From Eubacteriales bacterium (lineage in GTDB: Bacteria; Bacillota; Clostridia; Lachnospirales; Lachnospiraceae), in the NCBI GenBank assembly GCA_030536575.1, contig JAUNPS010000026.1:361-64360 (forward strand): a stretch of 64,000 bases of DNA, given 5' to 3'. The notes below the pieces were generated by a model. It was given only the letters and a program-made list of their open reading frames with translations, ran no database searches and was not told the origin of the DNA. Each line of letters begins with the position of its first letter. The first letter of the stretch is position 1. The translations under genes and the position numbers were made by a program. Below, one piece after another: positions 43,922-46,491 of this stretch.

Positions 43922-43929
43922 GCGGTTGG

Positions 43930-43961
43930 CGGCGGTGTCACTTGGGGGCACCGCCGTTTTT
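43930..43961 (+). terminator. Intrinsic terminator after metY
   Basis: CGGCGGTGTC-ACTTGGG-GGCACCGCCG followed by TTTTT. Confidence 0.8.
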
Positions 43962-44041: not shown

Positions 44042-44070
44042 TTGTAATTTTCCCCCGAATCCTGTATAAT
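44042..44070 (+). promoter_or_regulatory. Sigma70 promoter of the formate dehydrogenase operon
   Basis: TTGTAA-17-TATAAT with extended TG. Confidence 0.7.
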
Positions 44071-44134
44071 AAATCTGTTAAAAATCGAGAAAACATGTGT
44101 GGTTTGCATAAAAAACAAAGGAGGTATGTTTCAA

Positions 44135-44617
44135 ATGCTTGATCAGTCGTATTACGCAAAAGCGGATGAAATCATTGCGCGTTACGGCAAAAAGCCAGGC
44201 TCTCTGATCCCGATTATGCAGGATATCCAGGAGGAGTACCGCTACCTGCCCGGAGAGCTCTTGTCCTACGCCGCAAGCCAGATCGGCGTCACCGAAGCGA
44301 AAGCCTGCAGCGTGGCGACCTTTTACGAGAACTTTTCCTTCGACGAAAAAGGAAAATACGTGATTAAGGTCTGCGACGGCACCGCCTGCCACGTCCGCAA
44401 ATCCATGCCGGTACTGGAAGCCCTGTATAAAAAACTGGGCCTGAGCAAAACCAAAAAGACCACGGACGACATGCTGTTCACCGTCGAAACCGTATCCTGC
44501 CTGGGCGCCTGCGGCCTGGCCCCGACCATGATGGTAAATGAAGAAGTCCACCCCCGCATGACCCCCGAAAAAGCGGAAGCATTGATCGATCAACTGAGAG
44601 GAGGCGAACAGGTATGA
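44135..44617 (+). CDS. NuoE/HydC/HylC-like [2Fe-2S] subunit
   Basis: VCDGTACH...SCLGACG thioredoxin-like 2Fe-2S motifs; RBS AGGAGG. Confidence 0.92.
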   Translation: MLDQSYYAKADEIIARYGKKPGSLIPIMQDIQEEYRYLPGELLSYAASQIGVTEAKACSVATFYENFSFDEKGKYVIKVCDGTACHVRKSMPVLEALYKKLGLSKTKKTTDDMLFTVETVSCLGACGLAPTMMVNEEVHPRMTPEKAEALIDQLRGGEQV

Positions 44618-46491
44618 TCCGAAGCAGAGAAGCATTGCAGCAGATGAGAGAAGAAGCGGAGAAAGCCTTGCATTCCTACGATTGCCGAATCCTTGTCTGT
44701 TCCGGAACTGGCTGTATCGCCACCGGTTCCCATAAGATCTATGACAAATTTTTAGAGATTGCCAAAGACGCCCCCGGCGTCACCATCGAATTTGGCCCCC
44801 ACGACGAAAAAGCCCACGTGGGCGTGAAGAAAACCGGCTGCCAGGGCGTCTGCGAACTGGGCCCCCTCGTCCGCATCCAGAAAGGCGACGACGTGATCCA
44901 GTACACGAAGGTGCAGTTGGACGACTGCCAGGAAATTTTCGAAAAGAGCGTCCAGGGCAATGAAGTGATCGAACGCCTCCTCTACCAGAAAGGCGGAAAA
45001 GTCAGCAAAGGCCCCGACGACATTCCCTTTATCGCCAAGCAGACCCGTATCGTCCTGAAAAACTGCGGAAAATTCGACGCGGAATCCCTGGAAGAATACA
45101 TCGCCAGCGGCGGTTTCCAGGCTCTCACAAAAGCCATGTACGAAATGGACCCCGACCTGGTAGTGGATGAAGTGGATAAGTCCGGCATCCGCGGACGCGG
45201 CGGCGGCGGCTTCCCGGCCGGCCAGAAGTGGAAACAGGTAGCCCGCCAGGCCGACCCGGTGCACTACGTGGTCTGTAACGGAGATGAAGGCGATCCCGGC
45301 GCATTCATGGACGGTTCCGTTATGGAAGGCGATCCTTACCGCCTGATCGAAGGTATGATGCTGGCCGCCTATGCAGTTCGGGCACAGCACGGCTATATTT
45401 ACGTGCGTGCAGAGTATCCGAACTCCGTTGCACGCCTGAAACACGCCATCAAGGTGCTGGAAGAAGCCGGACTTTTGGGGGACAATATCCTCGGCACCGA
45501 CTTCAGTTTCCACATGCACATTAACCGCGGCGCCGGCGCTTTCGTCTGCGGCGAAGGAAGCGCCCTGACGGCCTCCATCGAAGGAAGCCGCGGCATGCCC
45601 CGCGTAAAACCGCCCCGAACCGTCGAACAGGGCCTCTGGGCGAAACCTACGGTTTTAAATAATGTTGAAACCTACGCGAACATTCCGGAAATTATCCTGA
45701 AAGGAGCAGACTGGTATCGCAGCATCGGCACCGAAGGTTCTCCGGGAACGAAAACCTTCTCCCTGACCGGAAGCATCGAAAACACCGGCCTGATCGAAGT
45801 CCCTATGGGAACCACCCTCCGGGAAATCATTTTCGATATCGGCGGCGGCTTAAAATCCGGCGCGGCCTTTAAGGCGGTACAGATCGGCGGCCCCTCCGGC
45901 GGCTGTCTGACCGAAGCGCACCTGGATGTGCCCCTGGATTTCGACTCCGTAAAGAAATACGGCGCGATCGTGGGTTCCGGCGGACTGGTTGTTATGGATG
46001 AACATACCTGCATGGTCGAAGTCGCCCGGTTCTTCATGGGCTTCACCCAGCGGGAATCCTGCGGAAAATGCGGCCCCTGCCGGATCGGCACGAAGCGGAT
46101 GCTGGAAATCCTCGAAAAGATCGTGGCAGGAAACGGCGAGATGGAAGACCTGGAAAAACTGGAGCACCTGGGCCGTTTCGTCAAAGACCGCTCCCTGTGC
46201 GGCCTTGGCAAGAGCGCACCCCTTCCGGTGCTTTCCACCCTGCAGAATTTCCGGGATGAATACATCGAACACATTGTGGATAAAAAATGCGCGGCTCACG
46301 TCTGTAAATCCATGCGTACTTATGTCATTGATCCTGAAAAATGTAAAGGCTGTACGAAATGCGCAAGGAACTGTCCGGTCAGCGCGATCACCGGAAACAA
46401 AAAAGAACCGCATACAATTGATACCTCCAAATGCATTAAGTGCGGAACGTGTCAGGATAACTGCCCATTTGGCGCAATCTACGTGAACTAA
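44614..46491 (+). CDS. NuoF/HydB/HylB-like FMN, NAD(P)-binding subunit of an electron-bifurcating-type complex
   Basis: N-terminal 2Fe-2S (CSGTGC..CQGVC), GRGGGGFP, NGDEGDPGAFMD, SLBB domain, ESCGKCGPC..CGLG, EH..KKC..HVC and two C-terminal 4Fe-4S. Confidence 0.92.
   Translation: MIRSREALQQMREEAEKALHSYDCRILVCSGTGCIATGSHKIYDKFLEIAKDAPGVTIEFGPHDEKAHVGVKKTGCQGVCELGPLVRIQKGDDVIQYTKVQLDDCQEIFEKSVQGNEVIERLLYQKGGKVSKGPDDIPFIAKQTRIVLKNCGKFDAESLEEYIASGGFQALTKAMYEMDPDLVVDEVDKSGIRGRGGGGFPAGQKWKQVARQADPVHYVVCNGDEGDPGAFMDGSVMEGDPYRLIEGMMLAAYAVRAQHGYIYVRAEYPNSVARLKHAIKVLEEAGLLGDNILGTDFSFHMHINRGAGAFVCGEGSALTASIEGSRGMPRVKPPRTVEQGLWAKPTVLNNVETYANIPEIILKGADWYRSIGTEGSPGTKTFSLTGSIENTGLIEVPMGTTLREIIFDIGGGLKSGAAFKAVQIGGPSGGCLTEAHLDVPLDFDSVKKYGAIVGSGGLVVMDEHTCMVEVARFFMGFTQRESCGKCGPCRIGTKRMLEILEKIVAGNGEMEDLEKLEHLGRFVKDRSLCGLGKSAPLPVLSTLQNFRDEYIEHIVDKKCAAHVCKSMRTYVIDPEKCKGCTKCARNCPVSAITGNKKEPHTIDTSKCIKCGTCQDNCPFGAIYVN

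Follow-up and report, generated by a model that had tools for sequence, protein, structure and literature searches.

A hydrogenase-free formate dehydrogenase operon with a candidate NADP-type, HydABC-like flavin subunit in a Lachnospiraceae genome

Can the flavoprotein core of a HydABC-type bifurcating hydrogenase work for a formate dehydrogenase (FDH), and which nicotinamide nucleotide would such an enzyme use? The question is raised by a three-gene operon, hydC-hydB-fdhA, in a genome of a Eubacteriales bacterium of the family Lachnospiraceae (GenBank assembly GCA_030536575.1). The operon lies in a stretch of 64,000 nucleotides that was analysed as a whole and is called the window here (contig JAUNPS010000026.1, positions 361 to 64,360 of the forward strand; our coordinates count from its first nucleotide). 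An earlier note on this DNA had proposed that the flavin subunit, HydB, carries NADP-type substitutions and belongs to an NADP(H)/ferredoxin-bifurcating FDH. Judging from the sequence, we favour at a probability of about 0.6 the reading that hydC-hydB-fdhA encodes a cytoplasmic, hydrogenase-free, three-subunit FDH/CO2 reductase of the Bfu (HydABC-type) family, placed in the predicted class Type 1 Fdh-Bfu and linked to NADP. We rate a preference for NADP together with ferredoxin coupling as somewhat better than an even bet, on the basis of a homologue with an NADP+-bound structure, six characterised comparators and the covariation of two residues. The type is new as a combination: a predicted Type 1 Fdh-Bfu is joined to an NADP-type HydB like that of Thermoanaerobacter kivui, and both of these are already known.

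The argument for NADP begins in the nucleotide pocket of HydB. The motif known elsewhere as CGEETAL reads CGEGSAL (aa 312-318, nt 45547-45567), with Gly315 (GGA, 45556-45558) in place of the second Glu and Ser316 in place of the Thr, and the aromatic residue of PP[F/Y]P is replaced by Arg335 in PPRT. In E. coli NuoF the second Glu (E183) binds the hydroxyls of the adenosine ribose. R335 is the counterpart of Arg340 of T. kivui HydB, since the region aligns without a gap at an offset of +5, and F200 is that of T. kivui Phe205. The nucleotides in T. kivui HydB are held by a Gly-rich loop, Phe205 and Arg340 (PMC10021017, Fig. 4 legend), and the HydABC of this organism uses NADP+ rather than NAD+, with weak NAD activity (PMC8578170, PMC10021017, PMC9431212).

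Six enzymes of characterised cofactor use allowed us to compare both sites. The two NADP enzymes are T. kivui HydB (8a6t_B; PMC8578170, PMC10021017), which reads CGESTAL and PPRT, and the Clostridium autoethanogenum protein AGY77002, which reads CGESTAL and KYIHT. AGY77002, of 599 aa, comes from an alignment with named sequences that accompanies Losey et al. 2020; it is very likely HytB, an assignment made by length and by accession/locus arithmetic rather than through a stated accession. The four NAD enzymes, HydB of A. woodii, A. mobile, T. maritima (7p5h_B) and R. albus, all read CGEETAL and PPFP. A rule in which Glu plus an aromatic residue denotes NAD, and loss of Glu plus Arg or His denotes NADP, sorts all six, and it predicts NADP for the window HydB (CGEGSAL, PPRT).

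Translation confirmed CGEGSAL, PPRT and AFMDG at the codons where the earlier note had placed them. Its proposal that loss of the Glu and a new Arg mark an NADP(H) site gained support from the equivalence of R335 and Arg340, from the comparators, both NADP enzymes lacking the Glu and having Arg or His and none of the four NAD enzymes having EGS/PPRT, and from the two-site covariation described below. A further substitution that it had counted as NADP-type, AFMDR to AFMDG, has to be dropped: the Arg is retained in T. kivui, and the Gly (G234 in place of the usual Arg) is a marker of an 18-row, mostly hydrogenase-linked clade, AFMDG being found also in the hydrogenase-linked loci L006-L021 (L-numbers denote homologous loci in genomes or human-gut contigs, G-numbers genomes, and G000 the host genome). 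We also rejected a proposed distinction between GDEGDPG for NADP and ADEGDPG for NAD (PMC9431212): the NAD-dependent T. maritima HydB reads NGDEGDPG, so that G223 of the window protein is not diagnostic of the cofactor.

The two pocket changes go together across the family. Among the 80 closest genome loci EGS is found with PPR[T/S] and EET with PP[F/Y]P, the sole exception being EET/PPLT in L061. In a wider set of 137 alignable representatives (clusters at 50% identity) the second Glu is kept in 107 and lost in 30, and 30 have Arg, His or Lys at the aromatic site; such a residue is present in 26 of the 30 Glu-less representatives versus 4 of the 107 that keep the Glu, which leaves four discordant representatives each way. 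Parsimony requires 17-18 changes for each of the two traits. EGS/PPR[TS] is a minority, lineage-linked state in the family, and the substitutions are not chance. In the HydB tree T. kivui groups with a 61-row EGS/PPRT clade (Shimodaira-Hasegawa-like approximate likelihood ratio test, SH-aLRT, 90; long branch), with A. mobile and one EET locus outside it. L076/L080 and L081, which lie among the EET sequences of the tree, also read EGS/PPRS, and the pairing seems to have independent origins there.

The EGS/PPRT signature is not special to FDH and is common in the HydABC of gut Clostridia. It is carried by ordinary hydC-hydB-hydA hydrogenase operons at about 55 of the 80 closest loci, and examples on the hydrogenase side come from Blautia, C. 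magnum, C. thermocellum (Cthe_0429), C. lentocellum and C. autoethanogenum (AGY75800). As a side observation, CGEGSAL/PPRT was the majority pocket among the closest HydCBA operons of gut Clostridia (L006-L065 and others), including those of metagenome-assembled genomes labelled Roseburia and Agathobacter.

The remainder of HydB points to a bifurcating-type subunit. Its Pfam matches are Complex1_51K (1e-44), NADH_4Fe-4S (1.7e-33), SLBB, a Fer4 pair and a weak N-terminal 2Fe-2S_thioredx, and its four closest relatives in the PDB are all proven bifurcating enzymes: HydB of T. kivui (8a6t_B, 3e-236), NiFe-HydB of A. mobile (8e-231) and HydB of A. woodii (1e-211) and T. maritima (1e-203). We took T. 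kivui, A. woodii and A. mobile (57.4%, 56.9% and 57.9% identical to the window HydB, respectively) as three solved bifurcating enzymes for comparing metal ligands, and every ligand listed in Table 1 is conserved in them, as is the Cys3His (C..H..C..C) site formed by C466, H553, C559 and C564. The N-terminal 2Fe-2S site, the AFM and GAGAF motifs, the C..H..C..C site and the two C-terminal 4Fe-4S clusters that the earlier note had listed were all found. Losey et al. proposed as markers of bifurcating beta subunits the Ala/Glu and the Met of an A-F-M triad, the Phe of GAGAF, and GGPSG, non-bifurcating subunits having T/S-x-K/S/A and Tyr at the A-F-M and Phe positions (PMC7311640). HydB has all three, with AFM at aa 230-232 (within AFMDG, aa 230-234, nt 45301-45315), GAGAF at aa 306-310 and GGPSG in the SLBB region. 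For T. kivui HydABC it has been proposed that ferredoxin is reduced at the HydB C-terminus (PMC10021017, Fig. 2 legend), and the window HydB ends in the corresponding ferredoxin-like domain.

The partners of HydB identify the reaction. HydC has CDGTAC and CLGAC as Cys ligands, and in the PDB it best matches subunit C of bifurcating enzymes (7t2r_C, 1e-43; 8a6t_C, 2e-42; 7p5h_C, 7e-41). FdhA matches Fer2_4, NADH-G_4Fe-4S_3, Fer4_Nqo3, Molybdop_Fe4S4, Molybdopterin (7e-80) and Molydop_binding in Pfam, passes the NCBIfam Fdh-alpha equivalog TIGR01591 with 834 bits (cut-off 666) and aligns over its full length with FdsA of Rhodobacter capsulatus, its best PDB match (6tg9_A, E=1e-221). Its active-site motif CARVCHS lines up with that of FdsA, and the catalytic Arg is conserved in NPLRGQNNVQG (nt 48142-48174); since the Cys-His site is conserved without an in-frame TGA, FdhA is of the Cys type and no selenoprotein. 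The N-terminal Fe-S domain matches T. kivui HydA (8a6t_A, 3e-48), and there is no separate catalytic subunit, a single FdhA bearing both the NuoG-like N-terminus and the Molybdopterin and Molydop_binding domains. The operon combines the features of the Bfu family: a NuoF core with extra metal sites, a BfuC (NuoE-like) subunit and a BfuA-type NuoG-like N-terminal domain. No Fe_hyd_lg_C match was found in the window, and neither a hydrogenase gene nor an extra Fe-S subunit gene is adjacent at this locus or in about 70 related loci. The description of a hydrogenase-free three-subunit operon given in the earlier note was borne out by this and by the position of the sole [FeFe] hydrogenase of the genome on another contig.

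On this reading, FdhA would interconvert formate and CO2 at its Cys-ligated Mo/W-bis(pyranopterin guanine dinucleotide) (bisPGD) site, and the electrons would reach the HydBC core along the NuoG-like Fe-S chain of FdhA. The partner of the HydB FMN would be NADP(H) and not NAD(H), since HydB has lost the acidic residue for recognition of the adenosine ribose (G315) and has R335 where Arg340 of T. kivui holds NADP+. The second electron would be exchanged with ferredoxin (Fd) at the ferredoxin-like clusters in the HydB C-terminus, as has been suggested for T. kivui HydABC (PMC10021017). Overall, the predicted reversible reaction would be 2 formate + NADP+ + Fd(ox) <-> 2 CO2 + NADPH + Fd(red). The potential of CO2/formate (-432 mV) lies between those of cellular NADPH (-370 mV) and ferredoxin (-450 to -500 mV) (PMC13040438), and for C. 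autoethanogenum the cost per CO2 is 0.5 NADPH plus 0.5 Fd(red) (PMC9431212).

A number of points weigh against an NADP-linked, ferredoxin-coupled enzyme. The pocket rule is anchored by just two NADP-specific relatives, one of which (AGY77002 as HytB) is assigned indirectly, and a literature search returned neither an assayed enzyme with the exact EGS/PPRT motif nor an assayed Type 1 Fdh-Bfu. An independent-pairs sign test of the covariation went in the same direction, with 8 supported pairs only (median p = 0.125), and is underpowered. Replacement of E183 in E. coli NuoF, which Morina and colleagues reportedly found in 2011 to raise the efficiency with NADPH by up to about 200-fold, is also said to have left activity with NADH in place, so that a dual NAD/NADP specificity is possible. 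Binding of the 2'-phosphate by Arg340 is not explicitly claimed for T. kivui, only stabilisation of the nucleotide (PMC10021017). The extra Fe-S clusters of HydB do not prove bifurcation, and the physiological direction of the reaction is uncertain, because neither Pfam nor a tblastn search with the complete ACS cluster from a congener found the carbonyl branch (carbon monoxide dehydrogenase/acetyl-CoA synthase, CODH/ACS) in the 91%-complete genome. Should the rule be valid, HydABC enzymes of the gut would mostly be NADPH-linked, unlike in current models of Blautia metabolism, which take HydABC as NADH-linked.

Some of these points feed the view that the EGS/PPRT residues are lineage drift, or reflect nothing beyond a relaxed cofactor specificity, which we consider unlikely. 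The exact EGS variant is uncharacterised, the NuoF variants reportedly retained NADH activity and the Blautia models speak for NADH; in addition, the signature prevails in gut fermenters, in which glycolysis yields its reductant mainly as NADH, and the failure of GDEGDPG as a determinant tells us that motif rules in this family can fail. However, drift would have to account for a pair of residues that sorts all six characterised enzymes and for a two-site change that recurs on separate branches, and relaxation fits poorly with a T. kivui HydABC that depends on NADP and has weak NAD activity; the host also has an NfnAB-like pair to feed an NADPH pool. A simple non-bifurcating, NADP+-dependent FDH, in which the extra clusters of HydB are inherited or ordinary wiring and ferredoxin is not involved, is less probable still. 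NADPH at -370 mV is near enough to CO2/formate and NADPH-only FDHs exist in acetogens (PMC13040438), FdhA is closest to the alpha subunit of the non-bifurcating FdsABG, and Losey et al. themselves caution that cluster content alone is no proof of bifurcation (PMC7311640). Yet HydB and HydC are 70-79% identical to their counterparts in neighbouring HydCBA hydrogenase operons and have their greatest similarity to enzymes proven to bifurcate, none of the ligands and none of the three Losey markers is missing, and FdsB-type subunits are different: a shorter NuoF-like subunit of this kind (TFKD, matching residues 146-550) is paired with a relative of FdhA in L090.

It is also conceivable, and in our view very improbable, that the three subunits are the core of a larger complex, for instance with the monomeric [FeFe] hydrogenase, or that the operon has been inactive since an IS110 insertion separated it from its cofactor genes. 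The C. autoethanogenum FDH does work in a complex with a hydrogenase, the host has one [FeFe] hydrogenase, on contig C27, and an IS110 element lies between fdhA/MOSC and moeA. The absence of adjacent hydrogenase and extra Fe-S subunit genes here and in the related loci speaks against a larger complex, and the inactivation of the operon is hard to reconcile with three intact open reading frames (ORFs), an insertion outside the structural genes and downstream molybdenum cofactor (Moco) genes that are intact and have promoter-like sites.

Compared with known systems, the predicted NADP-linked FDH is closest in its flavoprotein core to the NADP+- and ferredoxin-dependent, electron-bifurcating [FeFe] hydrogenase of T. 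kivui (8a6t/8bew): HydB is 57% identical over the full length, the pocket CGE[S/G][T/S]AL plus PPRT is shared and HydC is homologous, whereas catalysis is the task of an H-cluster hydrogenase in T. kivui and of a Mo/W-bisPGD FDH in the window. T. kivui HydB also differs in having AFMDR and RGGAGF where the window protein has AFMDG and RGGGGF. Type 1 Fdh-Bfu was predicted from genomes by Schut et al. 2022, with Carboxydothermus hydrogenoformans as an example and BfuB in clade 49 (PMC9304861), as a class then uncharacterised, and the description given there agrees with the window operon in having three subunits, a complete BfuBC core and a BfuA that includes the pterin site. The class is based on sequence and assumed to use NAD(H), the passages that describe it not discussing NADP at the BfuB site (PMC9304861), and the nearest relatives of the window HydB are hydrogenase-linked HydB proteins. 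Among the later papers searched, only the enzymes of G. acidurici and C. autoethanogenum are named as bifurcating FDHs.

The NADP-specific, bifurcating C. autoethanogenum HytA-E/FdhA enzyme resembles the predicted one in using formate/CO2, NADP(H) and ferredoxin and in a flavin subunit that has lost the Glu and gained a basic residue (CGESTAL..YIHT), although its His is preceded by YI and the Arg of the window HydB by PP. It differs in having an H-cluster hydrogenase, extra Fe-S subunits and a separate selenoprotein FDH, and the window cluster lacks the content of a Hyt/Fdh-type system (H-cluster hydrogenase, HytD/E). HylCBA-FdhF2 of Gottschalkia acidurici is, like the candidate described here, a hydrogenase-free bifurcating FDH with HydB- and HydC-type subunits, but is NAD-linked and has four subunits, with an H-cluster-less HylA apart from a selenocysteine-containing (Sec) FdhF2, in contrast to the one fused Cys-type FdhA of the window. 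FdsABG of R. capsulatus and Cupriavidus necator (6tg9, 6vw7) shares the full-length FdsA alignment, CARVCHS, the Arg and an alpha/beta/gamma layout; it uses NAD+, involves no ferredoxin and is non-bifurcating, while the window HydB has extra domains, AFM and GAGAF. The FdsB match spans only residues 135-548 of HydB, outside the N-terminal [2Fe-2S] and the ferredoxin-like domain at the C-terminus, and the description of non-bifurcating BfuB homologues in Schut et al. has them without clusters B2-B5 (PMC9304861). Moorella thermoacetica FdhF3/SfrA2/SfrB2 (PMC13040438) and Thermococcus onnurineus Fdh3 likewise connect formate/CO2 with NADP(H). As close analogues we rejected these SfrB2 and Fdh3B enzymes, as their NADP(H)-binding beta subunits, Fdh3B being an NAD(P)-binding protein, are separate and are not NuoF-type FMN proteins. 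SfrB2 and Fdh3B are GltD-like FAD proteins.

Few of the closest genomes carry the operon, which is common in the human gut. The order hydC-hydB(EGS/PPRT)-fdhA occurs in only three other genomes among the closest genome loci (L009, L015 and L020), with FdhA 78-85% identical to that of the window, and it recurs in about 65 of the 80 contigs of a metagenome scan with FdhA as the query, in many of them with FdhA 93% and HydB 92% identical; the contigs with a named source are from human-gut metagenomes. HydB is at most 79% identical to hydrogenase-linked HydB and the N-termini of FdhA and HydA only about 35%, which indicates one HydBC module with two very different partners. A free HydB tree requires at least two partner switches, and G062 has both operons, its hydrogenase-linked paralogue (76.7%) being a closer relative of its FDH-linked HydB than other FDH-linked HydB proteins are. 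Independent recruitment of FdhA by different HydBC lineages was considered and is not established, the approximately unbiased (AU) test not rejecting a single FDH-linked clade (p = 0.17).

Three observations concern other arrangements around these genes. On a human-gut contig of about 3.8x coverage (L151:3-1199) a mosaic hydB stands 5' of an fdhA that is 93% identical; its product is 85-98% identical to the window HydB over aa 387-625 and only 50-68% over the nucleotide-binding aa 227-386, where it has the NAD-type CGEETAL/PPYP/AFMDR. The mosaic arose either by domain swapping in nature or as a chimera of metagenome assembly. In two loci from the family of the host, L090 (G044:C218) and L091 (G032), an FdhA that is 62% identical has a different NuoF-like partner that matches only HydB 146-550; in L090 this subunit has the non-bifurcating-type EGEPGTFKDK yet CGENSAL..KPPHL, and the locus may encode a non-bifurcating NADP-type FDH. 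Finally, in L014, L016, L050, L054 and L064 a gene with a HydA/FdhA-like N-terminal Fe-S domain follows hydB, and the top hydrogenase match lies at least about 1.7 kb further (4.5 kb in L054) and is 37-39% identical to the monomeric hydrogenase of the host, which suggests a different subunit arrangement.

The genome of the host (4.8 Mb in 100 contigs) provides some context for the enzyme. Four Complex1_51K matches were found in it: HydB, a member of the RnfC2-MetV-MetF cluster and two in frames of 446 and 458 aa, which we take to be RnfC-like, judging from their size only. As its only [FeFe] hydrogenase is of the monomeric type and lies away from the fdh contig, the genome is without HydABC. 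Two of the three other genomes with the FDH operon likewise carry just an FDH-linked HydB, so that the FDH complex appears to stand in for HydABC in these organisms. FTHFS, the RnfC2-MetV-MetF methylene-tetrahydrofolate reductase cluster and the NfnAB-like pair are present in the host, and the last may be available to balance NADPH, NADH and ferredoxin. In seven congeners (G001-G007) ACS is found in six, FdhA in none and HydCBA in two. Seen from the host, there is a complementary pattern: G000 has FdhA, FTHFS and RnfC2-MetV-MetF with no detectable CODH/ACS, six of the seven congeners show the opposite for FdhA and CODH/ACS, and G000 exceeds the congeners by 1-2 Mb. The pattern could result from true gene content, from the missing 9% of the assembly or from a binning problem.

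In the gut, electrons move between species mainly in the form of formate and H2, and the conversion of CO2 to formate is the energetically hardest step in the Wood-Ljungdahl methyl branch. We put forward, tentatively and at slightly less than even odds, that the NADP-type HydBC is a plug-and-play module in human-gut Clostridia, and that in one set of common gut Lachnospiraceae a Mo/W CO2 reductase has taken the place of its [FeFe] hydrogenase partner. If this is true, such cells would vent NADPH and reduced ferredoxin as formate and not as H2, or draw low-potential ferredoxin from formate, and an enzyme that mixes NADPH (about -370 mV) with ferredoxin (about -500 mV) to attain the potential of CO2/formate would explain redox balance without HydABC. 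The enzyme would then be the first hydrogenase-free, NADP-specific Bfu formate dehydrogenase and, within the predicted class of Type 1 Fdh-Bfu, the first to be assayed; being compact and free of selenium, it would be a candidate for NADPH-driven CO2 reduction. As a corollary, many 'NADH-dependent' bifurcating hydrogenases of the gut would be NADPH-linked. On a practical level, the rule of a lost Glu together with Arg or His for the PP[F/Y]P aromatic residue is cheap to apply; it would assign another cofactor to many hydrogenases annotated as 'NADH', those of C. thermocellum and Blautia among them, and would shift stoichiometries in metabolic models of gut and biofuel organisms.

Table 1. Features of the fdh locus and its surroundings (window coordinates)
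Feature	Position	Strand	Basis or remark
Terminator-like hairpin, end of upstream Cys/Met-pyridoxal phosphate (PLP) gene	43928..43958	+	12-bp stem, 8 GC pairs, then T run
Promoter-like site TTGTAA-17-TATAAT, 5' of hydC	44042..44070	+	Consensus match only, 10/12 positions
hydC/bfuC-like gene, 160 aa, NuoE-type thioredoxin-like [2Fe-2S] subunit	44135..44617	+	Pfam 2Fe-2S_thioredx, E=3.8e-49
hydB/bfuB-like gene, 625 aa, flavoprotein with FMN and NAD(P)H site, five metal sites	44614..46491	+	Translation without stops
HydB N-terminal [2Fe-2S] ligands C29, C34, C76, C80	44698..44853	+	Conserved in 3 solved HydB
HydB loop NGDEGDPGAFMDG, aa 222-234, with bifurcating-type A-F-M triad	45277..45315	+	Losey criterion
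HydB GAGAFVCGEGSAL, aa 306-318, with bifurcating-type Phe in GAGAF	45529..45567	+	Translation, alignment
HydB PPRT, aa 333-336, R335 (CGA 45616-45618) in place of PP[F/Y]P aromatic	45610..45621	+	Alignment
HydB GGPSG, SLBB region, aa 425-429, proposed bifurcating beta-subunit marker	45886..45900	+	Criterion of PMC7311640
HydB NuoF-type [4Fe-4S] ligands C483, C486, C489, C529	46060..46200	+	Alignment, Pfam NADH_4Fe-4S
HydB C-terminal ferredoxin-like domain, two CxxCxxCxxxC (aa 577-587, 607-617)	46342..46464	+	Pfam, alignment
fdhA, 905 aa, NuoG/HydA-like N-terminus ([2Fe-2S] and several [4Fe-4S]) fused to Mo/W-bisPGD FDH domain	46498..49215	+	
FdhA active-site motif CARVCHS, metal-ligand Cys358 and His359	47557..47577	+	Aligned to CARVCHS of R. 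capsulatus FdsA
MOSC-domain ORF right after fdhA, overlapping its end	49188..49715	+	Pfam MOSC 5e-9; true start probably later than 49188
IS110-family transposase between fdh and Moco genes, context only	49808..51118	-	Pfam DEDD_Tnp_IS110, Transposase_20
Cofactor supply island: 2 MoeA, MobB, MobA-like/HTH protein, ModABC-type transporter, FdhD, second MOSC, MoaA	51352..62455	.	Pfam, genes up to 61385
FdhD, within cofactor island	58237-59280	-	Pfam
Second MOSC gene, within cofactor island	59359-59949		Pfam

The three ORFs are intact, in the order hydC-hydB-fdhA on the + strand (Table 1), and the arrangement is that of a compact operon. It is a separate transcription unit, as judged from the terminator-like hairpin that closes the upstream PLP-enzyme gene, and the promoter-like site 5' of hydC is the top consensus match within 43.7-51.5 kb. 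For hydC we prefer the ATG at 44135, 10 nt past a GGAGG, over the GTG at 44099 that opens the longest ORF. The ATG of hydB overlaps the stop codon of hydC (ATGA), an arrangement of translational coupling, and fdhA starts 6 nt beyond the hydB stop and is preceded by AAGGAGGG. These signals, the recurrence of the gene order elsewhere and the nearby Moco, ModABC and FdhD genes speak for a real and functional operon. No riboswitch, for Moco or otherwise, was found upstream, there being no Rfam match at gathering thresholds across the whole window.

Downstream, a homologue of the MOSC protein (57-67% identity) is found 3' of fdhA in about 14 human-gut contigs and not in L009, L015 or L020; both MOSC proteins of the window may be putative sulfur carriers for a sulfurated FDH cofactor. 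In L009, L015, L020, L164 and L165 moeA directly follows fdhA, with no insertion sequence between them. In the window, the end of the IS110 element contains a promoter-like TTGAAA-18-GATAAT (10/12 positions; 51057-51086, + strand) that points outward to moeA at 51352, and this site might have restored expression of the Moco genes after the insertion.

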